A DNA stretch of 56,828 nt, filler included, from Jimgerdemannia flammicorona (Eukaryota), in NCBI GenBank assembly GCA_003990765.1. It is 3 parts of 3 records of this genome, joined end to end, with 100 filler letters (N's around TTAATTAATTAA, not from the genome) between each part and the next. Parts side by side here need not be neighbours in the genome. Positions count along the whole stretch, not along the records: positions 37,958 to 56,828 come from RBNJ01002085.1; 2 more parts are not named here. One strand, written 5' to 3'. Position numbers and translations under genes: made by a program. Shown here piece by piece: positions 1 to 55,245 of the stretch. The notes under the pieces are model-generated. The model saw nothing but the letters and a program-made list of their open reading frames with translations, was not told the DNA's origin and ran no database searches. The number at the start of each line of letters is the position of its first letter. Position 1 is the first letter of the stretch.

Positions 1-184
1 CTTCTTGGTTGGAAACTGTAGCTTCTTCGGCTGCATACAGGTCATATCCAGCTGCTTTTTGACTTCCTTTGGTTGGGGCCTTAGCAGTTTGTCTTAACTT
101 GACAAAGTCTAGTGTTCTGGTGGTCAGATTGTTGAGGTGGTGCAGAGTGGTAACAGTTGCTCGTGTTGCTGTTCAGGGTTTTCG

Positions 185-1177
185 GTTGGGGCAGGCACTG
201 GCCATGTATCCTGTCTTTCGGCAATAGAAGTATGCTCCGCTTCTTTGAAGTTCATTCCTTTCGCCTTCAGTGAGTTTCTTGAAGGTACTGGGCTGGGTGG
301 GTTCAGGATTTCTGGGTGTCCAAGAGGTAGATGTGGAGGGAGCTCGGGATGCTTCATGCTTGGGTTCTTCTTTCTTGGTCCAAGTCCTTTCCTTGTTGTT
401 GAATTGCCTTCGGGGCAGAATTGGTCCAGCTGTTAGGATTCATTTGACCATGGTCTTGATTCTTGCCAGGCACCATTATTGGTGATCGCAACCAACTAGG
501 CGGCCTTGTTCTCGGATTTTTCTAGTAAGCCATTCAGGTAGTGCATCGAATAAATGGTCTGCTCTTGTACCATTTCGTGCTTCATCGTTGGTGATATATC
601 CTAGGCCAATAGTGTTCAGGAGTGACTCGAGTTTTGTACAGAAGGTTTCGAATTCTTCTTTGCCATGTACATCAAATTTGAGATTGCAGAGTTTTACTCG
701 AGATTCAGCAATTATTGTTTCACTGCGATATTGAGCAATCATGAGTTGTTTGAGTCCAGGGACTGCAGGATGGGCTCCATATCCTGGGGCATTGTTTGCT
801 GCATTCTGGGCAACTACTGCAGGTCGGGTATCCCATGTGAGGGATTTTTCAGGAAGGGTTCGCCACCATTCTTCGGCAGGTCCTTGGAAGAATGTAACAA
901 CTCGGTGGACATAGGCTGTAGTGGTAGCGAAGAGTTGTTCCAGGGTGTGGTCTTGATTGTTTGTCAGAACGCGGTCAGCAACTCACTCATTGGTCCATTG
1001 ATTGGCTTCAAAGTTGGTATCAACTATACTAATGAAGCTTTGAACTTCTTGTGCAGTACCATTGAAGGTAGGTAGACTCAGCTTTTTTGTAGGTCGGGTC
1101 TGTTCAGCTAAGGCAGTAATGGTTGCTGCCATTATAGCTACTTGGGCTGTGAGGTCTAGAATCTGTTGGTTCGCCAT
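185..1177 (-). pseudogene. Retrotransposon gag remnant with degenerate zinc knuckle
   Basis: Reads MANQQILDLTAQ...LPTFNGTAQEVQSFISIVDTNF, FFQGPAEEWW, LKQLMIAQY, FETFCTKLESL with in-frame stops. At ~189-236 it reads YFYCRKTGYMASAC, i.e. CX2CX4HX4C with C>Y and H>Y transitions. Confidence 0.8.
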
Positions 1178-2170
1178 ATTGATTGCTGGAGGCGGTTGGA
1201 CTGCCAGTAGTGGTGTTACTGGTACTACTTGAGGTACTGGTGCAGAGTGTAATGGGGTTCTTTGGGTCTGTGTAAGTTGCTGGAGTAGTAGTTGTGGATC
1301 TGGAGTGAGGGCTTGATAGATAGCTGTTTGTTGCTGTGTAGGTGTATTCTGTCCTGATGGGCGTGTGTCTCCTTCGGTGGTGTATCCAGGATCGAATTTG
1401 GTGAGATACTCCTCCTCTTCTTCGGCTTGGTCCCTGTGTAATTGGGTTTGCTTAGTGTCAAAGTAGACAGAATCAGTTGTATATCTGATTTCAGATAGAC
1501 TTAATTCAAAGTCAAGTTCAGGTTCGGTATTGGTTTCAGATTCAGGTAGGATTGTAGCAGGGCCTGCTTCAGGTTCAGGATCAGGTAGTTGATGAAGAGT
1601 TTCTCTTGCTTCTTCTTTAAGAATATGGCGGGCCTTGCTGTTCTGGAATCAGTAGTATAAGGCGGTCTTGGTTCTGGTACGGTGAAAGTCGGTAGAGTTG
1701 AGCTACTTGGCTACAGAGGCTTGGGCTTCATGAGGAACTAAGGCTAGAAAGACTGCTGCTGGTTGTCCTAGGTCACTCGGATTTGTGGAGCTGACAAAAC
1801 TCTTATTGAGAAGAGTAAAGAAGGCTTCAATAAGACCTTCTTTGTCTTGACTTGCTGGGTGTAGTACAAGGAGTTCGGTGAATAGGGTTTCGCCTATTTA
1901 CTGGTTTAACTTGAGTACTTCTTTCTTTGAATGAAGTTTATCCCACTTGTTGCAGGTGTGGAGGTCAAATTGTCCTTGTACGTCAGGTTCAATTCTCTCC
2001 AGATTGTCAGATGGTTCAGATAAATTCCAGTTCAGAGGTTGGGCTTTATACCAACTTATAGGAATTCACAGAGGGGTTTGTAGCGGGGTGAGGAAGCGTC
2101 TTGAAGCAGAATTGGATTGTAAACCGCTGCTACCAAGTTGTAAGAGGGTTACTTTTTAGGGTAACCATTA

Positions 2171-2430
2171 TGTAGTTCTAGAAAGATTTTCTGGAAGTTC
2201 TGGATATTCTGGAAGACCGTTTTCTTATGGCCAAGATCAATTTTGTATGGAGTATGTCCTCTACACTTATTGATTTCAAGATCGGGTTGACGTCTCAACC
2301 AAAGTCCTTTTTCGGACTAGTTCTGGATATTCAGGATTTTCCGTATTTCAGGAAGTTTAAGAAACTAAGACCAGCTTAGTTGAATTGGCGTATCGCTGCA
2401 GACAATACCCAATTAGGAAATTTCGTGACA
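2171..2430 (-). repeat. Putative 5' LTR (~260 bp)
   Basis: TG...CA termini with an adjacent PBS-like TGG at 2167-2155. The partner LTR is not in the window. Confidence 0.55.
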
Positions 2431-3017
2431 GGGTTAGGAGTAGGACCTAACAGGGAGCGGATTTACTTAAGAGTGGTTTGTGGGTTATGGAATAGGTTTA
2501 TTTGCTATTCATGATATTGCTATACTAGGAGTAGTTGTGTGAAGGGGTATTGTGGGGAAGTGCTCAGGAGTTGTGTTCAGATTGTTCAAGTCTGTTTCAA
2601 GTCTGAGATTCTGAGGTCTGGGGGAGGGGGTATTTATACTAGTGAGGGGCTATCTGGACTATGCTGAATATGGATATAGCACTAAGTGTCTTGCTGAGTC
2701 AGAATGCAGTCATATAGTACAAGTGTGATCTGATATGTCAAGAGATCGTCTGACTGCTGAAATCTATCTATACTATGACTGCTAGACTATTTATAGGTTT
2801 AGGCACTGTCTGGGTAGTCCTTGATGACATCACTATTGATGACATCATTACTGGCAAAGTCTGAGCAGTTTTCTGACTTCTGACATCATCAGTTTTCAAG
2901 ATGTCGTCACTTCTATCTCTTATAAGATTAAGACTATCCTTGGTGGCAGTGGTTGTACAAGGATAACAGGTCTTGGTTCTCTTTTTTTTTGGTCTACTGG
3001 CATATTTGCGAGGACTG

Positions 3018-3088
3018 GCCATTCTCGTCTAGGGTGAGGGCTCCCAATGTCGCGGCTGGGGGTTCGAACCTCTCGGAAATGATATTTT
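3018..3088 (+). other. tRNA-like / Pol III promoter-like sequence inside repeat DNA
   Basis: A-box-like TCGTCTAGGGTGAGG, B-box GGTTCGAACC in a GGGGG-TTCGAAC-CTCTC T-arm-like hairpin, and a T4 run at 3085-3088. The cloverleaf is imperfect. Confidence 0.35.
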
Positions 3089-3121
3089 CTGTAATCTGAG
3101 GCAATTTCTAGTAGTAATATC

Positions 3122-3612
3122 TGTCACATGGATGGCTTGAGATTGGTTTCGACATTGTCGGCTTTCTTGAGTTCAGATGAAGTGTCCGTCACTCTCCAAC
3201 GGAGGTAACACAGATAAAGCGAACAGAGTTGTTCAAATGCATTTTGCTTTTGCTAAGTAATGAGGTCTTGTATAGTCACGGTATATCTTGGTCTTGAGTT
3301 GATAAGTGCAGTTTGTGAACCTTTTGATGGGTGAGATAGGGTTCTTCTTGTCTTGATTTGAGTTTGGTACTTTCAGTTTCTTTTGTGATAGTACAGTACA
3401 CCAAACTAGCTATAGCAGTTCAGAGTCAGTCTTATGGTTCTAGTACTTCTTCTAGTATTCTTGTATCTTGGCGGTGGGTTCTCGTGCTTGCTGGGGTATT
3501 TGTGTAACCAGATGATCTCTTCGGTAACTTGTTTTGTAGTCTCGCATGTGGTTTCCAAATTAGTTCTGAGGATACCATGCGATTTTAGTGGCTTGGAGGT
3601 TGTGCGCTTACA
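3122..3612. mobile_element. LTR-like fragment
   Basis: Begins TGTCACA and ends TTACA, abutting the next LTR. No partner copy or TSD seen. Confidence 0.3.
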
Positions 3613-5198
3613 TGTCATGTAGTGGGTGCTGAGTTCTCCAAGTACATCAGATTCTCTTCAAGATGTATCTCTTAGACCAACTACAAGTTTCTTATAAGCA
3701 AGTTCTATTAGAGTACCTTCCTAAGGTCTTATAGTCCTCAAAATTCTTATCTTTAAACTGTTCTGTTGTCTCTTGGATTTACTTATGTAGAATTGAGTAG
3801 AGGACTGGAACTTTTATACTCTTGAGTAGTTGAGTACTTGAATGCTTGAGTGTTTTTTAATTCTGACTTTATTTCAAAGAAAATGAGAGGGGTATTTATA
3901 TAAAATGTAATTCAATAGTTACTAAGATATAATGTTTAATATAAAATCCAATAACTAAATAAGATATTGGAATATAGAAAACTTCAGATTGTAAGTATAA
4001 ATTTGAGTGCCTATATAATTAGTTGTATAAGATCAGAATGCTGGAATAATTTCTGACAGTTGTACAAAGTCAGAGTACCAGAATATTTAAGTATTCAAAC
4101 AAATAGTTACACAAAGAAATTAGAGTAAAATGTTCAAAATTCTTGGGGCTTCATCTTCATTGCTATTATTAAGGCAAGAGGTCAGAGATGGGATATCTTC
4201 AAAGGAAATAAGGTTAGTGAGCATTTATGTAAGCATTTTATTCATTTTGTATGTATCAATTAGTGAGATAACATCATCAACAATGATGTCATCACATTCA
4301 GCAGCAGTGGTAAGGAGATCAGGGGCTCTCTAATCTATGATATTTTTCTCCATAAAGTAGGAGACAAAGGTGAGATCTTGAGGGAGTCTGACCTGGATGC
4401 TGGGACCTTAGAATACTGAGATTAATCCTTACAGAAATTTATCTAGATTGTCCTGGAGGATGAAATTCCAGAACTCTTCTATCTCATTACTTTGAGAGTA
4501 ATGGTGGATTGGACTTCTGTGGCCACCATGGCTTCTAGTATATCTGTATAGCAGGCTGACAATTCCTTGAAGTCTGAGACTCTGGTATACTCTAAGTTGG
4601 AGATTGATCAAAATGTATGCCTGAAGATCTGATGGATCTTTTTGGCTACCTTCAATTTATATGCATCTATAGTGGTGTCATCTTGTATCTCTGGGGACTG
4701 GCCTGAGAGAATTCCTATATTTCTACTATATTTAGAAGTATTTGGTAGCAGTAGTGATCCTTGTCTCCATTTTATAACAGTAGAGAGTAAAGTGATAAAA
4801 GTCACTAGTACTCAGGTTGAGACAAGGAAGCCTTCTGGTGCAGATCCTCATGGCTCTCCTGATGTCTTGGAATATCCTTTTTTGAACTAAGAGACTTTAA
4901 TAGTTCCTGGACCTTGAGATTTGGTGAGTGGCAAGCATTTTGTTTATAGTGAGTCTTTTGAACTATTTCAGAGTTTTGTGAGTCTTGTTTGAGTTACTGC
5001 AACTGTGGTTTCTTGGTCTTTCTTTTATATTCCTTGAAATGTCTATCTTGTGGTCATTATGACTTATAGTTTATCATTATTGCTCATCTTGTAGCCTGGG
5101 TGAGTTATGCTATATGATCTTCTTGAGCTCTGATCTAATAACTTATAAAGAAAGGCTGTCTTCTGTGATGATGTCACTATTCTATAATTACCATTGTA
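3613..5198 (-). mobile_element. Long (~1.6 kb) LTR with U3 ORF; degraded copy of the 38071-39607 LTR
   Basis: Colinear with 38071-39607 (e.g. cagattctcttcaag, aaggtcttatagtcctcaaa, acctggatgct, aaggctgtc). Minus-strand TATAAATACC at ~3890-3900. Confidence 0.85.
4429..4938 (-). pseudogene. LTR-U3-encoded ORF remnant (copy 1)
   Basis: MLATHQISRSRNY*SLLVQKRIFQDIRR...AKKIHQIFRH...IEEFWNFILQDNLDKFL matches the ORF at 38832-39365. Confidence 0.8.
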
Positions 5199-18983: not shown

Positions 18984-19086
18984 CCCTAACCCTAACCCTA
19001 ACCCTAACCCTAACCCTAACCCTAACCCTAACCCTAACCCTAACCCTAACCCTAATCCTACCCTAACCCTAACCCTAACCCTAACC
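18984..19086 (+). repeat. Telomeric repeat tract (CCCTAA)~17
   Basis: Direct reading, with a couple of variant units. The left end runs into the gap. Confidence 0.97.
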
Positions 19087-27300: not shown

Positions 27301-27437
27301 GGCAGGAGGAACTCTGTGCCTACCCTCTTCACACTCTTCATGAGACAGCCTACTATGCCATAGACGCCATGTGTAACTCTAGTGGCCATCTTGTGGTTGG
27401 GTTCTGCCTGACCGAGATTACGAAGATGCTTGGGTGA
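24390..27437 (+). pseudogene. LINE ORF2 (APE-RT), ~1015 codons, several nonsense mutations
   Basis: Same motifs as copy 1. The 3048-nt span is a multiple of 3, and the stops are consistent with C>T changes (CAG>TAG, CGA>TGA). Confidence 0.93.
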
Positions 27438-27844
27438 TCAAGCGATTGCACATTTTCTTTACTCCCTTCTTTCCCCTTGTTTGCCCTGGTTGGTTCCCCA
27501 TTGTTGAGAATGCATTGAGTTATTCATCTCATTTCAGTCATTTGGCATTTAGTTGTCGATACAGTTCATGTAGTTGGCACCAGGCGAATGTGTATTATAA
27601 CTTAGCCTAACTTTTCTCTGCTTTTTGCATTTATTATCCTTACGGCCGTGACAAAATGGTTTTATCCAGCCTGTCCATAGGGTGGTTACCTCTCTGGCCT
27701 TTGTTTTGTACTTCTTAGCTAGTTGTTTACTTTACTGGCCTTGTTTTGCTTTTCTTATCTTAGGAGTCTTTATCTTTTGTTGCTCTGATGTACCTTTCTT
27801 CTCTACAATGAATAAATTCTTACTTGAAGCCTAACCCTAACCCT

Positions 27845-29672: not shown

Positions 29673-32600
29673 CTTATATTGCCTTTAACCTCAATGGTAT
29701 ATATGTTAATGTTACCTATCTCTATATATAACTCCTCCAAGATATCATCCTCCTCCTACAGCAGGAGCTCTATACTAGTCATGCTAAGGCTACTGCTAAT
29801 ATTGCCCAACTTACTGCTACCCTCTAACAAATCTCAGATCTCAACAATTACATTATTTAGCTAATTGACTGACTAATATATTTTGAATCCCCCACTCAAA
29901 CCACCTTATATTCTCAGTCTCATAGTTGTGGTCATACCACCTCCCCTCCCTCTGCTGCCACCAGGACTCCCATCTGGCTATATCAGTCATGATATCTAAT
30001 ATTAAGATTTTTGAGATTTTCTCTAGTGAATCTCTCCCACCTGTCAATAATGATAAGACCAAGGAGTCTACCTTTATTCTAGTATATCAAAGTCCCAGAA
30101 GAAGAGAGTTGTTCATGCTGCCCAACTTGTCTTTACCCCCCCTCCACTCTCCTCAACATCTTCTGCTCTTGGTTCAGTAGTCCATACTGCTGCTGCTAAC
30201 TCTTACTATCTTTATCTCCTCTATCTACTGCCTTAAAAGATCTTCCCAACAAGGGGTAGTTCTTGTTCTCTCCCTCTACCTCTAGTTCCAAGGCAGCCCC
30301 CAAGTCCTTTACTACTACCTCCTCCTCCAATATTCCCAAGGTTACCCTCTTCCAACAAGCTATTAATAAAGCTACTCACTGTATAAAGTCTAATATTGCT
30401 GATGATCTTTTTCAGACTCTTCTCCCCAATACTCAAGCCCACCATATCTGCCAATATCCCACCTATGTCTGGTCCACTAGACTATATAGTGTATATATTA
30501 ATTGTATTACTTGATAAGCCATTTCTGCTCTCAGTAAGGACCTCTGCTTTTGGGGATTTACTGTCTCCAAAATTCACAATGTCATATTTCTCAGTGACAA
30601 TATTACTGAATTCCTCATCTCTGATTATTATTGCATGAGTTTAAGTTCAAGATTACTCATTTTGAATATCAGATTCTTGAAGAGTATGATCCCTCTTATA
30701 TCTGGAACTCCAAGGCCTCTAGTAATGTCCAGACTAGGGTCTGTGAAGCATTTCAATATCATGTCCAGTGGTCTGCTGAGCCTTGTAGCAATGAGCAAAA
30801 CAGGGTATGATTTATTAACTGGGCCTGCTCTCCCAATATATCAATCTCTCCATCTCCTCACTCATAGTAAGAAGGAGCTAATGTCTGAATATATATATAT
30901 TGAATTTCTAAATATACAAGGACTCTTCTCTGGGAAATTCCACTCACTCTCTCTCTCTACCTTCTCCTGCTTTTATTATCTTTTTGTTGCTGGAATCTAA
31001 TACTTATCTAATAATGTTATCTGTCTTTTTCCTCTTTTCATTACATCCTCACCTCATTAACCCCTCTTGAGTTAACTCTGAGAGAGGTTGTAACCTCTCA
31101 ATCAACTTTGATATCTCTCTGGTTAATATCTCCAATAACTGTTTTCTTATATATTATTTCAATAGTCTCTCTCTTATTGGTATATATCTTCTCTCTTCTC
31201 TCTATATTACTTCTGATGTCAGTTCCTCTACCTGCTACCTATCTCCCTCAATTTCCCTTTCTGCTATTATTGTTAGTGACTTTAATATCAACTATACCTC
31301 AGTCTCTCCCCCTGATCACATTTATGCTATTGGACAATAGGCTAGCATCCTGTCCCTTCATTGATTCCCCCCTCTCCCCTCTCCTCTACTCTGTTGGATT
31401 GACCATATCTTTGCTTTCTCCTTCTTGAATATGTCTGTTACTCTTCACCACTCTCTAGTCTTTACTGATCATTTTTCTATGCTTTCCATTTCCCTCCCAG
31501 TCTCTGCCATCTGCTCCCTTGCCCTCTCTGCCATCTGCTGATTTGTGGTTTCTCTACTATACTCTCCTTCTCTCCACCTTTGCCAGTCTTTTACCTAGGG
31601 ACTTCTCTTTGATCTTTCAGGGTCTTGAGATACTGTAGAATAGCCTTACCCCCTCAATCTTCTCTTATATCTTTAGTATTAACATCTATAATTAGATGCT
31701 GACTGATATAATTTGTATTACTGCTAATGTCTCTATTGGTACCATCAACCCTATCTTCAACTACCATTGTCCTGATTATATTGGTGGCCACCTTGGCTGA
31801 TACTCCAATTCTATGGCTGCCATCTCTCTTTGGAAATGCTCTCTCTGAACTAGTGATCATTCTTTCTTCCTTACTATTCCTGAAGAAATTGATGACTACC
31901 AGAGGGCTATCTACTCCACTCTCATCCTTACCCATTACTCTTTGTTCCTTCTCCTGGACTACTCTTCTGAGTTCCCTGATTATATTGGTGATTTTGATCT
32001 TATATCACTCTTTTCTAAACACACTGTATAATAGACATACCACTGGTATTCTCTCTCTAAGTTCCCAGACATTAATGGCATTTATCATCACCTTTTCCAT
32101 CTCCTGGCTAGTGACCACTCTTTCAAGAATTACCCACTCTCTATTTTCCTCTCTCTACTCACATCTCTCTTTCAAATATATACTATTGCTGGTATTACTC
32201 TCTACTGTTGGAACTCTGTTCTTATCTCTCAAATCTCCAAGAAGGGTGTCTCTTTTGGTGTTGATGGCTTCTATTGTATTGTTCTTACCATTATGTTCTA
32301 CTGCCTCTTTGAGTCTGTACTCCTCTGGACTCTGGAAAAGAGTCCACATTTCTCCTGACTTGTGTCCTTCAGTAGGTACCAAGCTGGTTTCTGTTCCTCC
32401 TTTTCTACTGTAATATATACTCTCCTTTTGAATTATGTTATTGACAAGAACTCCTCCCACTATATTGTCTTTCTGGACATTGCGAAGTACTATAACTATG
32501 TTCCCTTCCCACTCATCCTCTCTTACTTTGCTGATCATAGCTACCTCTAAGGAATTCTTTCTCTTGTCTGGTCCATGTTCTATAGTCTTACTATCTCTAC

Positions 32601-34215
32601 CTTAGTGAATGGCATTGCCTTATCTAGTATTATTGCCAACATTGGTCTTCTTTAAGGAGTTGTTCTCTCTCTGTGGCTTCTCAATATCTTCCTTGACCCC
32701 TTGCAGATCTTCTCAATTGACAGTTTCTCTCTCTCTCTTAGACACAGGCAATTTCTTATACCTTATATTCCAGTATACTTTTCTTCATCAATAATATAAC
32801 CTTTGTTCCTCCTGACAGAATTCTTGATATCACACAATACATAGTAGATATATATATTGAGTGGGTGGATACCAATAATATCTCTTTTAATGTAAGCAAA
32901 TCTTGTGTCCTCTCTCTGATAATATCATCATCTCTATACATTCTTGGATTCCCCTCTCTTCCCCCCTCCCTTCTCTCCCCTCCTATACCTACCTCAGTTA
33001 TCCCATATGATATCTCCTTAGCTAGCTTTTCTTTGATTGGCCTGGGGAGCTGGTAGTTCACAACAAGAAGGCTGCTTCTTCTCTTTATGATATTTAGACT
33101 ATAGGTGATGATTAGGATCTGACTGTATGACTTTTGATATACTGAATATTTATGTATTTACAATTCAACTATATTCTGCTCTTTCTATATATGAGCATTG
33201 GTAGTGTTCTTCCACCTTATCTCCTCAATCTTAAAAACTGGGATGTTAATGTCTTGCAATAGTGTCTCAGTCTTCCCCACACTACTCCTGCTATTATCCA
33301 TACTATTATAGGTATTGCTCCAGTCCTATCTTGGGCTGAGACTTCTGCCATATCTATAAAGTTATAGGACTTTCACTCCCACTACTCCTCCAATTCTGTT
33401 CATGTCATCCTTGCCGAAATCTCCACCATAACTACTGTCTTCCTTTGATCTCTCCTTGGAAAACTTTATGCCAATCCAGTCTGACTCTCCTTCCACTGAG
33501 ATCTCTTCAATCTTGCCTCACCTCATGCCCTCAGCTCTTATGTTGCATACTCTCATATTGAATCACTTTTCTCTAGATCAATACTGATCTACTATATCTT
33601 TATGATAGCTTGTAACTATCAGGGTTTTGGTGCAGATCAGTGAATTTATATCCAGAACCCTAATCTTTTCTACAGGGCTTTACTCTGGTATGTAAATTTA
33701 TTTGAGTTTATGGTAGAGAGATATCAATACATTTGCAGTGAGCTCTTTCACCTTTTCTATACTCAGTGTCTCCTGGTGGATGGTGTTGATGACCTAGTTG
33801 TAATTTGCTCTATATATCAATATTTAGGGTCTCATCTTGCTAGTATTCTTCAATATAATAGTGAATATTTGGTCATCAATATTCCTGAGTATAGCTCAGT
33901 TGATGTAGTTCTTAATGAGCATAATTGGCCCCTTGCTTCCTTTCTTTTCTTTGAACTTAAAGTTACTATGATTTCTTATCTTTCTCTTCTCCCCCCACCC
34001 TTTCTCTATTTGATCTCAGTTGGATGGTTCAATTGGGCCCTTCTCTTCATTATTGTTTTGTTTTTCTTCAACTTAGTCTTTTTCATTACTTATTCTAACC
34101 TCAATCTGTTGTGAATTGTCAGTCTTTATATCCTACTTAGTATTTTGACAAGCTGGTATAGTATAGATGTACTGATGCACTTTGAATAAATATCTTGATT
34201 CCTAACCCTAACTCT
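29673..34215 (+). mobile_element. Telomere-associated LINE family B, near full-length degraded copy
   Basis: ORF1-like coiled coil and PKSFTT motif, APE start IEFLNIQGL (~30900), RT remnants YQAGF, VFLDIAKYY and LSLWLLNIFLDPL. Tail CCTAACCCTAACTCT at 34201-34215. Confidence 0.85.
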
Positions 34216-34452
34216 GATCTCTCTCTTCTCCCCCTCTCTTCTTCTATTTGTCCTTAGTTGAATGGTTCAATCAAGCCCTTTTCCTTGCTGTAGTTTTGTT
34301 TTTCTCAATTATATCTTTTTCATTATTTGTTCAAAACTCAATATCTTATAATTTATCAGTCTTTATCCTCTATTTAGTATTTTTACAAGCTAATGTAGTA
34401 TGGTTATACTGATACACTTTAAATAAATATCTTAATTTCTAACTCTAACTCT
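34216..34452 (+). mobile_element. Family B LINE 3'-end fragment
   Basis: Matches the family B 3' UTR (e.g. 33970-34200). Ends in TCTAACTCTAACTCT (34438-34452). Confidence 0.85.
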
Positions 34453-37857: not shown

Positions 37858-37957
37858 NNNNNNNNNNNNNNNNNNNNNNNNNNNNNNNNNNNNNNNNNNN
37901 NTTAATTAATTAANNNNNNNNNNNNNNNNNNNNNNNNNNNNNNNNNNNNNNNNNNNN
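37858..37957. other. Assembly gap with TTAATTAATTAA linker
   Basis: 100-bp N run with central linker. Confidence 0.97.
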
Positions 37958-38050
37958 TGAATTCTTGCAGGGGTGACTCTTGTAGTCAGGGTAGTTGTTG
38001 TGGGGGTTGTTCATTTTTTAGCTTGAAAGTGAGGGATTCATCTTGAATCA

Positions 38051-38067
38051 CCAGCCAATGGGCACCA
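38051..38067 (-). promoter_or_regulatory. Primer binding site
   Basis: TGGTGCCCATTGGCTGG lies 3 nt after the LTR end. A decayed homolog follows the LTR at 39888. Confidence 0.75.
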
Positions 38068-38070
38068 AGT

Positions 38071-39607
38071 TGTCACATAGTGGTCGCTTATGCCAGATTC
38101 TCTTCAAGGTATATCTCTTAGACTAACTCAAGTTGTTATAAGCAAGTTCTTATTGGAGTGCCTTCCCAAGGTCTTATAGTCCTCAAACTTCTTATCTTTA
38201 ACTGTCTTGTTATCTCTTAGATTGCTTGCAAGGAAGTGTGTGTATTGCACTGAGAAGACTGACTTTATTTCAGAGTAAATAAGAGAGGTATTTATACAAA
38301 ATATAATTCAATGGTTGCTAAGATATAAAGCTAAATATAAATTCCAATAACTAAAACTACTAAGTTCCAGGGCTGGCATTATTTAGTATTACATCAAAAT
38401 ACCAGTACTGGAATAATTTCGCATCACCTCAGAATGCCAGTACTGGCATTATCCAGTGTTACATGAGAATACTGGTACTGGTATTATCCAGTATAACAAA
38501 GAACTTAGAGCAGAAAGTTCAGGACCATGGGAGCTTCATTCTCATCATCATCATCACTGAAGGAGATGAGATCTGCGAATTCGTCATGCAGGCCGCATGT
38601 CTCATGTACTTCATTGTTGTGCATTTCATATACTTCGTGTGCTTTGGGTATATTGCACAGGATGACATCATCGCCAATGATGTCATCATGTTTGGCTGTG
38701 GCAGGGAAATCAGGAACAAGGTCTGGAGCCCTCCAGTCTATGAGGTTCTCTTCCACAAAATAAGGAACAAATGTGGGGTCTTGGAGAGATCTAACCTGGA
38801 TGCTTGGGCCTTGGAATACTGAGATCAATTCTTACAGGAATTGATCTGGGTTGTCCTGGAGGATAGGGTGCCAGAAGTCTTCTACTTCTTCGCTGTTGAG
38901 GGTGATAGTGGACTGGGCTTCTGTAGCCACCCTGGCTTCTAGTGCATTGATATGGTAGGATGATAGGTCTCTGAAATCTGAGACTCTAACATACTCCAAG
39001 TTGGGGATCGACCATGGTGCATGCTTGAAGATCTGATGGATCTTCCTAGCTGTCCTTGTTTCATGTATATCCATAGGAGTGGTAACTTGTAGCTCTTGGA
39101 TACTGGCCTGTGGGAACTCCCAGCAGAGGAGGTTTCCTATTTCATACTCCTGCCACATTTGGAGGTATTTAGTAGCAATGGTGATCCTTGTTTCCATTTC
39201 ACAGTGGTAGAGGATAAAGTAATAAGAGTCTGCAATACCCAGATTGATGCTAGGAGTCCTTCTTGAGTGGGTCCTCATGACTCTTCTGATGTCTTGGAAT
39301 ATCCTTTCCTCAACCAAGATACCTTGGTGATTCCTTGACCTTGAGGTTTGGCAGGCAGCAGGCATTTTGTTTGTGGTAAGTCTTTGAGCTACTTTGGGAT
39401 TGGTGGTTCTTGTTGGTTGCTGCTACTGTAGTTCCTTGATCCTTCTTTTATATTCTTCAGGATGCTCATACTGTGATCACAATGACTCACAGTTGGTCAT
39501 CATTGCTCATCTCATATACTGTATGATCTTCTTGTGCTCTGATCTGGTGGCTTGTAAGGAAAGGCTGTCTCTTGTGCTGATGTCATCATTCTGGGGTCAT
39601 CGTTACA
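38071..39607 (-). mobile_element. 5' LTR (~1.54 kb) of a Gypsy element whose internal region runs left into the gap
   Basis: Minus-strand TGTAAC...GTGACA termini, PBS directly downstream, TATAAATACC at ~38290, second copy at 3613-5198. Confidence 0.88.
38832..39365 (-). CDS. Open 177-aa ORF encoded in LTR U3 (unknown function)
   Basis: ATG-initiated and uninterrupted. Homologous to 4429-4938, 46771-47757 and ~54380-54670 (motif YEIGxxL...ARKIHQIFKHxPW..L..V). Confidence 0.7.
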   Translation of the reverse strand: MPAACQTSRSRNHQGILVEERIFQDIRRVMRTHSRRTPSINLGIADSYYFILYHCEMETRITIATKYLQMWQEYEIGNLLCWEFPQASIQELQVTTPMDIHETRTARKIHQIFKHAPWSIPNLEYVRVSDFRDLSSYHINALEARVATEAQSTITLNSEEVEDFWHPILQDNPDQFL

Positions 39608-41260
39608 ATATATATAAAAAGTGACTTATAGGAAATATAGTCATAACTTAGCCACCTTATAGCTAATAAACTTGTATAAATATCCTCAGTATCTAGAGTA
39701 AATAAACCTCAGATTGAAATAGTTCAAAGTAAGGAGAAAGTAAGAGAACTAATAAGCCTATAGGCAGATATACTTCAAACTCACCCACTCCTATATCCTG
39801 AGAACTCTATAGAGTTAAAGAAGATTAATTTTTAAGATAAAGAAATCTGATATACTTACACAGTTATGCATCTACTATATTACAACTTAGTGATCATTAA
39901 CTAGTAATTTAAGATAAATCTCTTACTTTTAAGCTAAATAACAAATAACTGCTACCACCTAAATAACTATACAAATTGAATCAAGATATCTAGACAAGAT
40001 AGATATAAGACCACCAGTATTCTATGGATATACTTCAGATGAATCAATCATTACATTCATTGATGACTTTAAGCAATATACTACTATAAGGACTCTGATA
40101 GCAGGATAGCAAGTAGCTCTCATATCCTTCAGTCTCTGAGGACCATCAAGAGCAGTATTTATGGCTGCAACCTATATAAGAAATAATGATGATACCATGC
40201 TAGCAGCACAGAAGACCTAGCTCTAAACCACCTACTATACAGATAAGATCAAGCAAGCTCTGAAGAATTAGCTCAATATAATATATCAAGGAATGAGTAA
40301 GGATCTAAATACATTTTATACTAAAATCCAATATCAGATAATTCTTATCAATTATACTAATACTATCCAAGATCAGGTAGCTGAAGCAATCTTTATGAAA
40401 AGAGTTCATCCAGAGATAGCTATGGTCATCTGCTACATTCAGATAGCAAATAAGATATAGACTTACTGAGACAACCAAGAAGCAAGATTGAAAGATAACT
40501 GAGGCCAACAATATTTAAAAAGACTTTAGAGAAGAAAGTAAAGATAATTGTAAGATCTCTACCTATATAATCTATTAAATCAAAGATAGAATCTTTAAGG
40601 CTATCATTGACACTAAAGCAGGAGGATGACTCCTTAGCAAGAAAGCAGTAGACTGCCTAGGTTGGGAGGTTGAAGAAGCAATCAAATTGATATTTATTAC
40701 AGCAGATAGTATAAGAGCCACATCTCTAAAAAAGATCTAAGATATTTTCATCAAGTTCAGAGGGACAATAATCTTAGTAAATATGATCATAACTAACTAC
40801 CAACTATGTCATTCTCATTGGTAACCAGTGACTTTATAAAGCTAGAGCAATAATCAATCTAAATACTCAAAAGTTACAAATTATCTACTAAGATCAGAAG
40901 ATATAAATTCTCATCAATGTCAATAAAGAAGTACTATCTGAGATAGAGAAAGAAAAAAGTAAGCAAGAAAAAGCCTACATAGTGACTTCTCAGAAAAAGA
41001 AAAAAAAGTTAGATAGATCAGTAAAGAGGACTGGTACAAGAAGATTGTAGAAAGATACATATGTATTATAAGGAGTCTGCCTCTATAGAATCAAGATGTA
41101 CTGTATGGAGCATATTAATAATTACTACCAGTATACCAGTAGTATCAAGAAGATATATTATAAAAAAAGACAGAAGGCTCTCAAAAAGCAGGCAAGAGAA
41201 GATAAGGAGGAGGAAGAGGATAATGAATCACCAGTTCTCCTAGAAGACAGTGATGATGAA

Positions 41261-41673
41261 GAAATCAAGGTCAAGATTTAGAGGATCTACTCTGATACAG
41301 TTCTACCAGAATATAAGTTAGAGAATACAGCTGGAATGGATATCACTACTGCAGAAAAAACCATACTTGACCCCAGATAACTACCCTACTTACAACTAGT
41401 CTAGAGATGACTATTTCAAAGACTATATTGGAATCCTCAAGACAAGAAGTAGCCTGGCTAAGAGTGAGATTATAATTGAAGAAGAAGTCATTGATTCAGA
41501 TTACATTAGAGAGATACTACTCATTGCTAGAAACTATAACTCAATAATTCCATTTCTAATTAAGAAGAAGAACTGATTGGTACAGATATTAATTTTCCCA
41601 GTTCTGTAGCCAAAGATCATAGAAGTCAAGTTGGAGAAAACAGAAAGAGGAAAGAAAGGATTCAGATCTATAG
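41261..41673 (+). pseudogene. dUTPase domain within Gypsy pol
   Basis: Decayed versions of the five dUTPase motifs in order: TAGMDI, TRSSLA, VIDSDYIRE, *LVQIL, ERGKKGFRS. Confidence 0.85.
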
Positions 41674-41899
41674 AAAGAAGAGTATTTACTAGTACCAAAA
41701 TTACCAAACTGGATCACAAGAAGGAGGAAACTATAAATAAGTATAGCTATACTATTGGAGATATGTAAATTCCTACTCAAGAAGAAACTCAAGAAGATAT
41801 TTTACAAATTTGAGGATATCCTAGTTACAGACTTTAAAAATATTAAAAAAAAGACTCTATATTACTATTATGATATAGATATATAGAGGGGACACTGAA

Positions 41900-43571
41900 T
41901 CAATCTACCAAAAAGCAAAGCCAATACTGCTAGCCTACCATAAATAACTTAGAAAAAAAATCAAGTAGATGGAAGAAGCTGATATTATCAAAGAAGCCAG
42001 TAGTCCTTGGGCTTCACCAGTTGTACTAGCTCTGAAAAAAAGAAGTAAGCTAGGAGAATTCACCCCAAGACTTTATATAGATTACAGAAAGCTCAACCTA
42101 GCTATAAAGAAGAATTACCAGCCACTGCCCCTCATCAGTAATATCCTTGTAATCTTAGAAGACAAAGTATAGTACTATAGTATCTTGGACCTATATTTAG
42201 AATTCTATAAAATTAGCCTCATGGAAGCAGTAAGTGAGAAGTCAGCCTTCATCACTCTAGACAGAACTTATAAATACTATTCAGAATATATAATGTACTA
42301 ATAAGCTTCTAGTAAATGTTGAACAAAATCTTCTACTATAATATAAGAAGATAGATGATAGTTTATGTAGATGATATTATCATCTACAGCAAGATACTAA
42401 ATGAATATCTACAATACATCTAATAGATGATAAAGAAGCTAAAACAGTATAGCTTATATATCAAGTCAAAGAAGTATAAGTTTGTGATCATATTATCAAC
42501 TAAGATAGAATATATATAGACTTTTTCAAGATTCAAGCAGTAGTAGCATATCTAAGATCCATTATAGTTACTGAAGCCCAAGCCTTCATGGGGCTCACCC
42601 CTTACTACTACAGATTTATCAAAGAATTCTCTAACATTGTAGACCTAATCTATGAACTTAATAAGGATGTTAAGTTCTAATAGACTGATACAACAGAAAG
42701 TATTTGATGAACTCAAGATTAGGCTAACCCAAGCATCTATCCTCAGAAGACCTAATTGGACTCAAGAATTCATCCTGCAGACAGATGTAAGTGTATAAAG
42801 ACTAAGAGCAGTTCTGGTCTAGAAAAAAGACAAAGTAGAATATATAATTACATATCTCAGCCAAGGAACCCAAGGAGCTGAAAAAGAGTATGAATCCTAT
42901 AAGTTGGAATATCTTGTAATTATCTGGGCTATAGAGAAGTTTTACTACTATCTTATAGGAAGATACTTTACTATCCAGACAGACTATTCAGCTCTCATCT
43001 AACTACTGACCATCAGGCAACTCAAAGAAATCTATGTCAGATGGATTATAAAGTTACAAGCTTATGATATAACTATTGTATACTATTCCAGAAGAACTAA
43101 TACTAATTTAGACACCCTCTCACAGATACTCTAAAGGACTCTTAACTAGCAAATCAACTATAAATAAGAAACTCTACTACAGAATTATTACCTATGTATC
43201 TGGAACAGTAAAAGATGCCCCAATATCTGAAAGAATAGATACAATGATCATTAATAGAATATAGAAACAATTTGAGACTAATAGAGAAATACTAAAGAAA
43301 GAAGAGCTATTAGTCATATCCAAATATAAGAAAGAGCAAGCAATGAAATCAGTATATGAACTTGGCTATCTAAGAGGAAAAAATATATACAATAAAGCAA
43401 GAAGAACAATGTGGTGGTCAGGAATAGAGAAAGATATCAGGTGATTTGTCAAGGCCTATAATAAATACTAAAAACAGAAATAAGACCAATAAAATCAAAA
43501 CCCCAGATTAGCATATATACATAGAACCAGTACCCTTTGCACATATTTCAATGAATGTAATTGACTCTCTA
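41900..43571 (+). pseudogene. Gypsy RT, RNase H and integrase N-terminal remnant
   Basis: Motifs as above, then MWWSGIEKDI and PFAHISMNVIDSL, cut at 43571. Confidence 0.88.
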
Positions 43572-45190: not shown

Positions 45191-46167
45191 TTATAAGCTC
45201 AAGTCATTCATTATCTCCACCTTATTCACTACTCCTACCTTATTTACCAACTCTGCCTTTATCTTAATCTTATATAGTCTTTCACCATTTGACTGCTCTC
45301 TTATAAAGTTAGAAGCTACAAACTTACTGATATTAATCTTGTCTGAACATAATGTAGTCTGCTTGATTTCATATATCTTTATAGTCTGGTATAGTCTATC
45401 TATAGTCTGCTCCTTAGTTTTGTATATCTTTATGGTCTGTAGCCTATCTGTAGTCTGCTGCTCCTTGGTTTTATGGAACTGATATAATTTATTTGTGGCT
45501 TGGTACATATTATTCACAGCTTGGTACTTATTGTTCATACTGGGATATATTTTCTTCATCTTAGGATATGATCTATTATCTTTAGACATAAAGAGATTAT
45601 GATAAGAAAGAGTAAGAAAATATATAATTCTTCTAGGTAAAGATCTCTTTTTATACCTATAATATTCATAATAGATATATATATTGTGGCATTGGTTATG
45701 TATAATGAACTTCGACTGCACGGCTCAATGTGTCTGCTCGGTGTAGCACGCGATGTATAATCTGAATACGTTAGTGACATTCGCGGGTCGATGGTCATGT
45801 GACGGGTTGTTTGATTCATGTAGTAATAATAGCGGGAGGTCATTCGACGATGGCTCAATTGTTTAGTGGATAAGGGGGGCGATTATGCTGGCTAAGTTTC
45901 CTGGCAGCAATTATGCTTATCCGTGGCGGATGATTAACCGAGGGACAATTTGGCAGGTCGATTCGAAGCAGCGACAGTCTTGGCTTTAAATGGTTCGTGG
46001 CGCAGTAGGTCGGGAATCAGAGAAGTGGAGGTTGACGGCTCGCTCGTCCATCTAACTTGTTAGCTTGAGGGTGGATTTACTGGGGTCCTTGGCAGTTGTT
46101 CTTGCTAGCTGGCGGGTCTTGTACTGGTATCCTTGAGTTCCTTGGCTTTTCGGGGTCTTGAATCTCG

Positions 46168-46224
46168 AATGGCAGTCTTGAATGGCAGTGGTTCTTGAAT
46201 GGCAGCGGTTCTTGAATGGCGGCA
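46168..46224. repeat. 17-bp tandem repeat gaatggcagcggttctt in the LTR
   Basis: About four imperfect units. Confidence 0.75.
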
Positions 46225-46770
46225 GTTCTTGAATGGCAGCAGTCGGGTAACGTTTTCTTTCTGTGGCAAGAGAAAATTCTTTAACTCAAACTTCTAAGCA
46301 ATCTGTTGCTCTAGGTCATTATCTTGTTCTCAGAATTTATCCAGTCTCTTGGAGGCAATGGTTTCTTTGTAATCCTTTTACTTTTAAACACAAACTGACT
46401 GAGGTTTATTCACTCTAAGAATATGGGTTATTTATACAAGTTTGCTAGCTATGGGCATGGCTAAGGTATACTACATTGTGGCAAACTTCGCTATGCTATT
46501 GGCTTGCACGATGCAAGGTGCAGGCTATTGTTTACTATAGATTGGGTTGTAGGAGATAGTAATGCTGAAAACGGGTGTGACAATTGTTTGCGCCGAATAG
46601 GGATAAGATGAGTGCTAGTGCTGGATATGGATGTTGTGGGTGGTAACGCTGGATTCGGACTTGCTGACAAAATGCTGAAAACGGTGGCACTGAATAGCAA
46701 CGCTGGATTCAGACTTGCTAACTTGCTGACATGAAGGCTGCACAATTCTCATGGCTGACAGGTGGTGCTT

Positions 46771-47757
46771 CTAGAGGAAATAGTACCCTTCATCCGTGGC
46801 GGGCAAATCTTGCTGGGTTAAGATTTCTTCTTTATCATACCTCTCCTCAAAAGGGGGAAGCACCGGCCAAGAGGTGAGGGGGTAGAAAAGTGGCCAGTCA
46901 TCTTCAACAACATTCTCCAACCCTTGAACAGCTTGAATGTGGACAGAGGACTGGTAGACTCTCTGTTGCTCCTCTTCTTCTTCTAAAGACTTGTCAGTTT
47001 CAGTATCAGAGGGGGTTTCTTCAGGGGCAGAGTCTTGGAGTTCTTGGGCTTCCTCTTTAAAGACAGGGACCTCTTGGGCTTCTTCTTGATTCGGTTCCCA
47101 AATGATGAGATGTGAATTGTGGCTAACAGGGTGGTGGGTGGTAGGGGTAGCTCCAACAGGTGCTTCTATAGTAATAGGCGGTCCTTCAAACATCTCTATA
47201 AGGCTCATTAGGTGACCTTGATGGTTGTCTCGGAGTGGGGTGGTGTGGAAACCTGGTTGAGTAGGTTCGGTTTGTTGGCTTCCTACAGCAACGCAGTTGC
47301 TGCCAGTAGAGTTGGCTACTTCAGATTCTATCCAGTCAGCATCTTCAGTTGAAAGGCAGGAAAGGCTGCCAGTCGTTACTCCTTGTAAGTGTGCTATGGC
47401 CCAGGGAATATGGCAGAAGATTTGGTGGACATAGAGGGCTCTCTTGATTAGCCAGCTAGTGGTTATCAATTCGGTAATGAGGCCTTCCCGGTCGTCTTCT
47501 TGAGTCTCATTGCGAAGGCAGTGTCCGATTTCATAGTCATACCAGAGGGTCATTCGTTCGGTAGTATCTTTGAGCTGTTGGGTCATTATATACCAGTAGT
47601 TGATGAAGTGTCCAAGGTCCTCAGTGTAGAAGTTCAAGTGTTTGGAAGTATCTGGGTGCCAGATGGCCTTCTTGATAGCTTCAAAGATCAGGGTCTTTGG
47701 GCCAGGCAAAGGGGTAGAGCGGTGGGAGGTCTGGTTGGTTCATTGAATGGAAGGCAT
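46771..47757 (-). pseudogene. LTR-U3 ORF (~328 codons) with one early nonsense codon
   Basis: In-frame ATG at 47757 (MPSIQ*TNQ, TGA at codon 6, likely from CGA), then >310 open codons. Contains DYEIGHCL...ALYVHQIFCHIPWAIAHLQGV and an acidic C-terminal extension. Confidence 0.75.
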
Positions 47758-48699
47758 TGTGTGGTGGGTACTTGGTTCTTTGGTGCTAATCCTTGAGGCG
47801 GAGTATGGTTCCTTAAATAATGTGGTCTTCATTTTGGCTTAGATCATCTTGTCTTCTTTTGGGATGATCACCTAATGGGTTAGGCTGTCTATTTGATTGT
47901 CACGCCATTATGTCATCTGATCTTAGTAGTCACCAGTACTCTATTGTCAATTGTGTATGTCACAATATATAGATATCAGAAAGTTTAATAAGTAAATGTA
48001 AAACTTACTTATATTTAATTAATATGATGATATAATGAGTTTGGTTAATATGATAAAGTGTAAGTATGTTAAACAAGTATATATTAAGCAAGCATACCAA
48101 GTAAGTACATTAAGAGCAAAAGTACAAAGCTAATCAGATAAAGAATTTAAAGAATTTTATTTTAGATCAGTGTATTTTATATTTATAAACTTACTATTAA
48201 AATTTATATTATTCTTTAAATCCTTTCCTACTTCAAACCTAATACTAATATGAAGCTTTCTTATTTATATTGTAACCTAAGTATATATCTGCCTTGAGAT
48301 TGACTCAATATATCTATAAGATACATAATATACTTATACAATATCAGAATAATAAGTTTATCTTTGAATTTCCGATTTATTAAGATTTTAGCAACTTTAA
48401 TATTATACTACTATTATCTATAAATTCATTCACAGTTTATGAGTTAACCTTGAATTCTACACATATTTCAAGTTTAAGCAATCTATGTAAATAAACTTGG
48501 AAGATTTCAGATAATCATACTAAGTATATATATAATTTAAGATAATATCAGCAATAATGACCTATCTTCAATTTAAGAATAGAAAAGCCCATTGTTTAGT
48601 AAAAATAATAATTCAATTCAAGAGAAAAGACAATTATTGAGAGAGAATAATAATTTAATTCAAAATTAGAGAAGCTCATTTACTATATTAGAGTTTAGT

Positions 48700-53499: not shown

Positions 53500-54290
53500 T
53501 ACCCTTGACTTTGACTGGTAACTAATATATTATTATCATTATAGACCTTTTTATAAAATGGATAGAGATAGGACCTCTCAAAGAAGTCAATATATAGTTA
53601 ATTACTGATTTCTTCTATAAAGAAATCATCTGCCAATTTAAGACCTTATTGCAAGTAACTGTAGATAAAGAAATAGAATTTGTAAACTAGTTCTTTGAGG
53701 TTCTCTATAAGAAGTATAAGATTTAATACATTCAGACTATAGCCTATCATTTTCAGAAAAATAGATAAGTAGAAAGAATAAATAAAACTCTCAAGAATAT
53801 TATTGCCAAGATCTGCAATAACTATAAAAACTGAGATTACCATCTGCTAATAGCATTATCTGCTCTTTGGGATATCTAATTATAAAGCACTTATTTCACC
53901 TCTTGAGAGATGCTATTTAGAGAAGAAAGTTCTCAAGAAATCTTATCATCTAATAGAGATACTATATATATAGAAATATGTGGATACAGAGATATGGAGA
54001 CTATACCAAATTAGGAAGAAGGTCAAGAATTATATAACTAAGATATAGGCACTATAACAGAACAATATGGAAAAGATTTACAAGCCTCTGGAGATTATTA
54101 AGATAGAAGATAAAGTTCTAGTATATTGAAATATAGTAGAAGCTTCATAGTTACAAAAGCTAGAGTTTAAGTAGAAAGAATCTTATTTGGTACAAGATGT
54201 AAAAGAAATCACCTTTTGACTATAAAAACTCTTAGACATAATCATCTCTACTATTATTTACTAAAACCAACTCAAGAAGTATTATGGCTA
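53500..54290 (+). pseudogene. Gypsy integrase core and GPY/F remnant
   Basis: YIIIIIDLFIKWIE, VTVDKEIEFVN, TIAYHFQKNR*VERINKTLK, KIEDKVLV. Confidence 0.85.
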
Positions 54291-54300
54291 ATTAATGAAG

Positions 54301-55245
54301 TATTACAACAGCTCTCAAGATTATCAGTACTATACAATAAGCCATAGAAAGACAATAGTATAGTACAGAACTATCAATTATAGAAGAATTCTTTGATAGT
54401 ATCCAGAATATAGTCCAGATATACTTGTTATGAATCTTATATTTCAAGGCCTACTAGAACTAGACTGAGTTTCAAGAATACTTCAAGTTGGAACAACTAC
54501 TAAACTCATGACCAGAGATAGAAAAAGAAGACTGGATCAGAGAATGCCAGCTCTCTCATACTCAGATCACAATTGCTAAATAAGTTAATAAGTTGTTTAA
54601 AGATAATGAGTCAGCTCTAGTCTATCTCTAAGAAGTAGTCTCAGAAGACTTTGGATATATTAAGATACATATATCATTGAAAGAACATAATAATATAGAT
54701 AGTACAGTATAAAGAGATACAAATTATGGAAGCTTGAGAGTTCAAATAAATAGAATGTTTCAGAGATAAATTATCTATTCAGAAGAAAGTTATAATGATT
54801 GATCTAAATTAGTAATATGAATTAAGAAAATAGATATTTAATTGTAGTACTTGAATCTGATTCCCAAATATAGTATAGTCTTACAAATAGCAGTTATATT
54901 TAACAAATATAGAAACTTTAACAGATATTAAAGTATTTGTAAATATTAAAGATTTAGCAGATATCAAATACTTGTGAAAAGTAACTTACAGAAAACATAA
55001 TCATAACTTAGCCACCTTATAGCTAGCAAACTTATATAAACATCTTCAGTATTTAGAGTAAATAAACCTCAGATTGAAATAGTTTAAAGTAAAGAAAAAT
55101 TAAGAGAACTAGTAAGCCTGTAGGCAGATATACTTCAAACTCACCCACTCCTACATTCTGAGGATTCTGCAAAGTCAAAGAAGATTAAATTTTCAAGATA
55201 AAGAAATTCAACATACCTACACAGTTACATATCTACTATATTATA
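54301..55245 (+). repeat. 3' LTR (~0.95 kb) including a decayed U3 ORF
   Basis: The last ~270 bp match the 5' LTR remnant. The 5' boundary is inferred from TATTACA (decayed TGTTACA) at 54301. Reads FQEYFKLEQLL...TIAK*VNKLFKDNESALVYL*EVVSEDF. Confidence 0.65.

Follow-up and report, generated by a model that had tools for sequence, protein, structure and literature searches.

Long terminal repeats (LTRs) are normally regarded as purely regulatory DNA. Genes in or overlapping an LTR are known from vertebrate retroviruses: the sag gene of mouse mammary tumour virus (MMTV), which encodes a superantigen, lies in the U3 region of a betaretrovirus LTR, and nef and bel/bet overlap U3 in lentiviruses and foamy viruses, respectively. 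Here we analysed a 56,828-base stretch of DNA from Jimgerdemannia flammicorona, called the window below, in which four LTRs (LTR1 to LTR4) of Gypsy-type retrotransposons each hold an open reading frame (ORF). We consider it probable that this ORF represents an accessory gene that is contained completely in the LTR and is shared by a small group of Gypsy-type retrotransposons that are related and bear a dUTPase. Like sag, nef and bel/bet, it would be an accessory-type, non-structural gene placed in or overlapping the LTR, and so present in every LTR copy. Unlike these retroviral genes, it does not extend beyond the LTR, is preceded by a TATA box of its own and belongs to a retrotransposon with no env seen. 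No homology to retroviral accessory proteins was detected in Pfam (E ≤ 1), in PDB sequences (E ≤ 10) or among the folds of BFVD (E ≤ 0.001).

Extra genes are also described on retrotransposons. The antisense brtn gene of Botrytis Boty-like elements is reportedly one such additional ORF (aORF). The aORFs reported to date are found between the LTRs, either upstream of gag in plants (ORF0/aORF1; Retrosat2, RIRE3 and RIRE8) or between pol and the 3′ LTR (PMC7264820, PMC3485330). In the second source, ORF0 of Retrosat2 is placed upstream of gag-pol and LTRs are stated not to code for replication enzymes (PMC3485330). The ORF of the window is similar to aORFs in being a lineage-restricted, fast-evolving extra gene without known domains on Gypsy-type elements. 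It differs from internal aORFs by its place inside the LTR, where it would be doubled along with the repeat and persist after reduction to a solo LTR. A search of the full-text literature returned no description of a gene within the LTR of any non-retroviral LTR retrotransposon, fungal or otherwise; subscription journals and Repbase lay outside this search, and earlier descriptions may exist. Literature matches for 'LTR ORF' concerned MMTV or polyprotein ORFs. The LTR-internal position is unusual for a retroelement accessory gene, and very unusual outside retroviruses.

The LTRs and the reading frames they contain

Two linkers of 100 bases each, identical in sequence (N44, TTAATTAATTAA, N44), at 18884-18983 and 37858-37957 join the three pieces of which the window is made. 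These pieces are separate, and genomic context does not extend across the linkers. The four LTRs and their ORFs are as follows.

3613..5198, minus strand: LTR1, a 5′ LTR of the LTR2 subfamily (70-74% identity), with C>T and G>A changes in excess
4123..4938, minus strand: ORF relic of LTR1, in three hidden Markov model profile pieces over two frames, with several stops
38071..39607, minus strand: LTR2, the 1537-bp 5′ LTR of a Gypsy-type element, with TG...CA ends
38505..39365, minus strand: ORF of LTR2, 286 codons (39365 to 38508) plus stop, with a lone in-frame TAA at codon 178 (38832-38834)
45685..47964, minus strand: LTR3, 2280 bp, probably a solo LTR, with TG...CA ends and ATAT(AT) at both flanks
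46771..47757, minus strand: ORF of LTR3, 328 codons (47757 to 46774) plus stop, with a lone in-frame TGA at codon 6
54221..55245, plus strand: placeable part of LTR4, decayed, comprising TATA1, an ORF relic, a core block and the 3′ end at 55245
~54285-54721, plus strand: ORF relic of LTR4, with many stops and an ATG-like start at 54285

In all four LTRs the ORF is on the sense strand of the element, between the LTR 5′ end and a conserved core block, and it is homologous over three subfamilies that are divergent in DNA. In LTR1, LTR2 and LTR3 it is found inside the TG...CA unit and ahead of the primer-binding-site (PBS)-like site, and not between the LTRs like ORF0 or aORFs. The initial annotation had proposed four LTRs of three subfamilies, each with a homologous sense-strand ORF upstream of the TATA box, and this description is borne out. 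Its coordinates for LTR1, LTR2 and LTR3 hold. Its start for LTR4 (~54301) is too far to the right, since the ATG-like start at 54285 and a TATAAAA at 54221-54227 both lie left of it. The 5′ end of LTR4 is uncertain and possibly lies near ~53980.

LTR1 and LTR2 can be aligned from end to end, and their homology breaks off abruptly at both termini. The two are 74.4% identical 5′ of the ORF, 70.6% identical in the ORF itself and 70.0% identical 3′ of it. On the plus strand, LTR2 starts with TGTCAC and ends with GTTACA, giving TGTAAC...GTGACA on the minus strand; the corresponding ends of LTR3 are TGTGGC...GTCACA and TGTGAC...GCCACA. TG...CA termini with a short inverted repeat, as in Ty3/Gypsy LTRs, are therefore present in LTR2 and LTR3, and the 5′ end of LTR1 is mutated (TACAAT). 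The ATAT(AT) beside LTR3 sits in AT-rich DNA and is too simple a sequence to be taken as a target-site duplication. LTR3 is probably a solo LTR still carrying the ORF, in line with the earlier proposal that solo LTRs spread it too.

Four further segments link these LTRs to element interiors.

1..3612, minus strand: internal region behind LTR1, with a weak gag match at 479-982 (E 0.0024) and a weak dUTPase match at 2-172 (E 2.2e-4)
38006..38070, minus strand: leader with a PBS-like sequence after LTR2, 75% identical to 39885-39949 (plus strand)
39608..39884, plus strand: 3′ part of an LTR belonging to the subfamily of LTR4 (87% identity to 54977-55243), its left side cut off by LTR2
39885..43441, plus strand: decayed Gypsy internal region, with dUTPase (41400-41573), RNase H (42649-42999) and an integrase zinc domain (43265-43441)

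The gag match behind LTR1 is to Retrotrans_gag and lies on the minus strand, as LTR1 does. Among longer proteins no relatives of the gag-like ORF (479-982) were found at E ≤ 0.001, and TBLASTN of the LTR1-interior ORFs against the window gave no match elsewhere. Behind LTR2, a motif beginning with TGG is located in the leader, 2 nt past the LTR; the window contains no tRNA genes, so no tRNA was matched to it. The homologous leader at 39885-39949 (plus strand) comes after the plus-strand LTR fragment and is followed by the Gypsy interior. In that interior, Pfam searches of stop-free ORF pieces gave the domain order dUTPase (E 4.9e-4), RT_RNaseH (E 7.5e-14) and Integrase_H2C2 (E 2.3e-4); the reverse transcriptase (RT) domain was not recovered. 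The LTR fragment preceding this interior is tied to LTR4, whose final 267 bases are 87% identical to 39617-39882. Because the gag-like and dUTPase matches lie behind LTR1 on the same strand, and because a Gypsy-like leader follows LTR2, both LTR1 and LTR2 are the 5′ LTR of an element on the minus strand. The elements to which the LTR4 subfamily belongs lie on the plus strand. These matches agree with the earlier assignment of the units to Gypsy-type elements.

Alternatively, the units of 1.5-2.3 kb could be a distinct, non-autonomous repeat with a tendency to insert next to Gypsy elements. This would fit the lack of paired copies around one element in the window and the (AT)n that borders each of the three minus-strand copies on its 5′ side. 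It is at odds with the TG...CA termini and with the PBS-like leader 2 nt past LTR2, homologous to that of the Gypsy element, and the same core block closes a truncated 5′ LTR directly before a Gypsy interior. We regard such a repeat as highly improbable and treat the units as LTRs below.

Weak dUTPase matches, just under the Pfam cut-off, occur in both Gypsy interiors, at 2-172 (minus strand, E 2.2e-4) and 41400-41573 (plus strand, E 4.9e-4). This suggests that the elements are members of a Gypsy lineage that carries a dUTPase.

An (AT)n tract adjoins the U3 edge of all three minus-strand LTRs (5199-5215, 39608-39616, 45670-45684 and 47965-47975), at both sides in the case of LTR3. Either the elements prefer (TA)n or decayed AT-rich DNA as insertion sites, or the tracts are a coincidence in a neighbourhood rich in AT.

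Homology, relatives and selection

The N-terminal part of the LTR2 protein (P0001) and the LTR3 protein (P0002) share 28% amino acid identity over 146 residues (BLASTP, E 8e-13), whereas BLASTN between subfamilies finds no DNA similarity in the ORF, the only aligning segment being a block of ~75 nt around the downstream TATA. TBLASTN of the ORFs against the window recovers the copies in LTR1, LTR2 and LTR3 and nothing else significant. For LTR4, the profile match has an independent E value of 0.056 over all six frames of the window. Over the three sense frames of 53980-55032 it reaches 9.1 bits (E 1.1e-4), a score attained by none of 500 dinucleotide-preserving shuffles (maximum 4.7). The copy in LTR4 is weak but above chance, and all four copies are real.

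Word-seeded database searches yielded relatives of the LTR2 protein (4 of 52 candidates) and of the LTR3 protein (2 of 346). A profile search of all 1,835,955,588 representatives gave 10 proteins at E ≤ 0.001, six of them at E ≤ 1e-10. These ten are 40-342 residues long, the intact relatives 247-342. Neither a form fused to gag or pol nor a free-standing cellular homologue was found among the 1.84 billion representatives. The clusters of the relatives have 1-6 members and come solely from JGI/IMG and ENA metagenome data, on contigs that are mostly 0.6-2.4 kb long (the longest being 19,434 bp). The metagenome locus scan provided a single contig (L001, 1535 bp), with an intact ORF of 291 codons; no related loci were found in viral_contigs. 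The sequencing runs listed for these LTRs were three soil-metagenome contig sets from two studies, with small shares, and included no RNA run. The three sets contain numerous short contig pieces that match LTR2 and LTR3 at 80-99%, for example one of 792 bases with 52 differences on LTR3. None of these soil-metagenome contigs usefully spans an LTR-internal junction, the joints being few, with short sides and low depth.

Frames of 271-342 codons are open in relatives that are just 23-47% identical. The relatives have in common the motifs W-x-[ED]-Y-E-I-G-H-x-L, A-K-K-I-H-Q-[IV]-F-R-H-x-P-[WY], NP-[IL]-L-x-D-N-P-D-Q and F-x-G-P-x-I. Long open frames with shared motifs in lineages this distant are a stronger argument for selection than the ratio of nonsynonymous to synonymous rates (dN/dS). 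Between LTR1 and LTR2, the first, second and third codon positions show 0.31, 0.21 and 0.37 differences per site, respectively (chi-square p 1.6e-4). The dN/dS of this pair is 0.28 (NG86) or 0.46 (maximum likelihood) over 256 codons; of the 266 codons aligned, the 10 with a stop in either LTR were dropped. The value is subject to a transition bias, the changes being mainly transitions (C>T 107, G>A 89). In comparisons of different subfamilies dS is saturated, and the dN/dS estimates do not exceed 0.22. Overall, these comparisons indicate that the ORF evolved under purifying selection.

Several claims of the initial annotation find their answer here. Protein similarity that persists where DNA similarity is not seen had been noted and is confirmed by the searches above. 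The past selection that had been deduced from it is consistent with the codon-position bias and with dN/dS values that lie below 1, not close to it, both within the LTR2 subfamily and between subfamilies. The ORF is not a gag or pol fragment: it has no Pfam or PDB match, and TBLASTN leads to no other site in the window.

At the stop positions of LTR2 and LTR3, intact relatives have Q and R, showing that both lesions are of the C-to-T type. The four window copies are inactivated by transition-type decay.

If the ORFs were chance open frames in non-coding LTR DNA, their lack of a known domain and of expression evidence would cause no surprise. An E value of 8e-13 between subfamilies and frames of 271-342 codons in relatives 23-47% identical would then be hard to account for, as would the codon-position bias and the confident core model described below; we give this idea almost no credence. 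A host or foreign gene, captured once by an ancestral LTR and now decaying without a role for the element, has more in its favour. All four copies in the window are broken, no similarity to any retroelement protein is seen, and the family is tiny, with 10 representatives. Against such a passenger, the ORF has been kept together with its TATA and 5′ untranslated region (UTR) in three subfamilies whose LTR DNA is otherwise too diverged for BLASTN, dN/dS is below 1, and no free-standing cellular homologue was found among the 1.84 billion representatives. In our view a passenger gene is very unlikely, and we retain the interpretation as a gene of the element.

Promoter-like and terminator-like signals in the LTR

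In barley BARE-1, each of the two promoters gives rise to element RNA, and the TATA boxes are not known to have an ORF between them. Two boxes, TATA1 and TATA2, are mentioned for BARE LTRs in PMC3485330. The LTRs studied here are like that of BARE-1 in having two TATA boxes per LTR; here 0.9-1.0 kb of coding sequence separates them. The signals were located as follows.

39446..39452, minus strand: TATA1 of LTR2 (TATAAAA), 87 nt before the ATG, the sole sense-strand TATAAAA in LTR2
47811..47819, minus strand: TATA1-like box of LTR3 (TATTTAAGG), 62 nt before the ATG
54221-54227, plus strand: TATA1 of LTR4 (TATAAAA), upstream of the ATG-like start at 54285
38373..38498, no strand: tandem repeat of LTR2 (unit of 35 nt, 3.6 copies), located past the ORF stop and ahead of the core block
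38252..38298, minus strand: core block of LTR2 (TGTATAAATA, 17 nt, AATAAA, GTCAG)
46393..46438, minus strand: core block of LTR3 (TGTATAAATA...AATAAA...TCAG)
3856..3902, minus strand: core block of LTR1
55033-55078, plus strand: core block of LTR4
39673-39718, plus strand: core block of the plus-strand LTR fragment

Upstream of the ORF, a TATA box is found 62-91 nt 5′ of the ATG, with no ATG in between, in five of five copies (LTR1-4 and L001). This TATA1 is the canonical TATAAAA in LTR1, LTR2, LTR4 and L001 and TATTTAAGG in LTR3. Just before the ATG, a 19-nt stretch of the 5′ UTR (AAGACTTACCACAAACAAA) is identical in LTR2 (39366-39390, minus strand) and L001 (350-375), the two proteins being 41% identical. 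This stretch may be a start-site or regulatory element.

Downstream of the ORF, all five LTR copies contain the core block, composed of TATAAATA (pattern T[GA]TATAAA[TC]A), about 18 nt (17-19), AATAAA and TCAG. It is the sole DNA still alignable between subfamilies; the block of LTR3 is ~80% identical over ~75 nt to 39634-39712 and 55003-55072. The TATA of the block is read as TATA2. In LTR2 and in LTR3, the AATAAA of the block is the single one on the sense strand and lies 26-27 nt after TATA2. Each of the five copies also has an initiator (Inr)-like TCAG(T), ~36 nt past the T with which TATA2 begins. The distance from the ORF stop to the block is 209 nt in LTR2 and 335 nt in LTR3, and that from the block to the LTR 3′ end is 193 nt and 720 nt, respectively. 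The 35-nt repeat of LTR2, which lies just 5′ of TATA2, is inferred to be enhancer-like. A 17-nt tandem repeat (3.8 copies, 46176-46240) was also observed in the 720-nt region downstream of the core block of LTR3.

From this layout, the core block is, in our judgement, fairly likely to be the element's own promoter, with a poly(A) signal just upstream of an Inr-like start. Read as the promoter, it places the ORF in U3. A poly(A) signal between the TATA and the start site is a known retroelement layout; so placed, the signal would be present only at the 3′ end of the element RNA.

The same signals could be assigned otherwise, with TATA1 as the only promoter of the element and the TATAAATA...AATAAA block as a poly(A) signal only, made of an efficiency plus a positioning element. 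The ORF would then lie in an R region of ~1.15 kb, and two RNAs would have it as their first cistron: the genomic RNA and a short one produced by premature termination. The canonical TATAAAA of TATA1 in LTR1, LTR2, LTR4 and L001 and the uniqueness of AATAAA on the sense strand of LTR2 and LTR3 agree with this assignment, and TGTATA or TATATA followed by AATAAA resembles yeast-type 3′-end signals as they are generally known. It leaves aside the Inr-like TCAG(T), which keeps its distance of ~36 nt from the first T of TATA2 in five of five copies, and the 35-nt tandem repeats just 5′ of TATA2, which resemble an LTR enhancer. It would also require an R of more than 1 kb and a 286-codon ORF before gag on the genomic RNA, both of which are generally unusual. 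We therefore hold the R-region assignment to be unlikely and prefer the core block as promoter.

With the core block as promoter, TATA1 could drive a separate mRNA of ~1.2-1.4 kb ending at the LTR's own AATAAA; we put the chances of this as evenly balanced. The transcript would run from TATA1 through the ORF and be polyadenylated at the signal of the same LTR. Given such a separate mRNA within the LTR, every LTR, whether 5′, 3′ or solo, would be a self-contained expression unit.

The predicted protein

The predicted product has 270-340 residues; its core is helical, and the tail that comes next is disordered and strongly acidic. The full-length AlphaFold2 model, obtained from a 15-sequence alignment, has an overall predicted local distance difference test score (pLDDT) of 66. 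Its helical core (approximately residues 17-150) reaches about 88-97 in the best blocks, and its C-terminal tail (217-271) is below 50. The core-only AlphaFold2 model (LTR2 codons 16-165, 17 sequences) has a pLDDT of 83.7 and a predicted template modelling score of 0.77; it comprises seven helices, one of them 37 residues long. From the F-x-G-P motif onward, the net charge is −10 to −27 and D and E make up 18-26% of the residues. The tail has two conserved short hydrophobic motifs, DLIxF and VLNFL.

Searches for known relatives of this protein were negative. Pfam, run on the ORFs and on 15 family members, gave nothing at E ≤ 1 except scattered chance-level rows, and no gag, protease, RT, RNase H, integrase or chromodomain was found. 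The profile search of PDB sequences gave 0 matches at E ≤ 10. The ESM Atlas offered no lead (best feature score 0.83, structure TM ≤ 0.33). With Foldseek, no match at E ≤ 0.001 was obtained in PDB, for either the full or the core model, or in BFVD. With VIA-align, the full model reached a Z of at most 5.2 and the core one of at most 4.2 (rmsd 4.3 with 77 residues aligned), both within the stated noise range of the tool. The models thus suggest an orphan protein family, with a confident helical model and no fold match.

Among the VIA-align matches listed, core residues 53-139 align with the helix-turn-helix (HTH) region of the ParB/SopB/KorB group: DNA-bound SopB (Z 4.2), VirB (4.0), P1 ParB (3.4), KorB (3.1 and 2.9) and ParB (2.8). 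Unlike what would be expected of a ParB/KorB HTH, the Z values are far below the level that is meaningful for helical proteins, neither Foldseek nor sequence searches give a match, and the domain is not basic. The likeness to ParB, SopB, VirB and KorB is suggestive and may serve as a lead only.

Possible role, and points against a gene in the LTR

Several observations weigh against an accessory gene of the kind proposed. The window contains no complete two-LTR element, so that both LTRs of one element bearing the ORF are not directly seen. All four copies in the window are pseudogenes. Between LTR1 and LTR2 the DNA of the ORF (70.6%) is no better conserved than its flanks (74.4% and 70.0%), and the dN/dS values carry the limits given with them, namely dropped stop codons, transition bias and, between subfamilies, saturation. 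The database relatives are open ORFs by way of their collection. The core block could be merely a fungal poly(A) signal, which would put the ORF in R. Finally, the N-terminal part of the protein has a net charge of −7 to +5; the helical core is therefore not basic, which speaks against direct DNA binding.

For the role of the protein, which would act in trans, a folded helical module joined to an acidic, motif-bearing disordered tail would fit an adaptor that recruits host factors for the benefit of the family, for example to activate the LTR promoter or to counter silencing. We advance this adaptor tentatively, as the best of several guesses though itself a rather unlikely one; a transactivator or anti-silencing role in particular is a guess to which the acidic composition of the tail lends some support. 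A copy-number-dependent self-limiter, whose dose would rise with the number of solo LTRs, is decidedly unlikely in our estimate, and a role in the particle or in trafficking would be equally so.

Taken as a whole, the locus might represent a self-contained LTR gene, with its TATA, conserved 5′ UTR and poly(A) signal, in a non-retroviral Gypsy element. Each LTR, solo ones included, would then express a trans-acting factor of a fold not seen before, and the solo LTRs would form a shared helper pool or a copy-number gauge. We rate this combined picture at somewhat short of an even chance. A gene inside the LTR would be doubled in each element, copied by the LTR-regenerating steps of reverse transcription, and able to outlive the element in solo LTRs. 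If the picture is true, solo LTRs are potential protein sources and not inert scars, and a family-wide helper or dosage sensing becomes possible. An orphan family of this type would be masked by transposable-element annotation pipelines and hence missed by gene callers.

Other elements in the window

Retroelement remains are abundant throughout the window, whose GC content alternates between blocks of 45-55% and blocks of 23-30%. The AT-rich blocks decayed by transitions, together with the weak Plavaka match and the polyglycine-hydrolase-type repeats given below, make a fungal host probable. The third piece begins just 113 bases before LTR2.

In the second piece, a plus-strand element is repeated in tandem at 19086-27844 (two copies, period 5153, 88% identity) and has an RVT_1 match (E 6e-16) in a 644-residue frame; no LTR features were seen, and the element may be of the non-LTR type. 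It is followed, at 27843-34452, by a repeated unit of ~4.9 kb with 72-78% identity between copies and internal 240-nt sub-repeats, part of which resembles 52188-52570. Pfam searches of the ORFs of this unit gave no match. In a GC-richer, gene-like part of the first piece, a 219-residue open frame at 10748-11404 (plus strand) contains two structural repeats of the polyglycine-hydrolase type (BTRD1, E 2.7e-10). In the third piece, a weak match to the C-terminal end of a Plavaka transposase (E 3.5e-4) was observed in heavily AT-rich DNA at 50099-50317 (plus strand), which is probably a DNA transposon relic.

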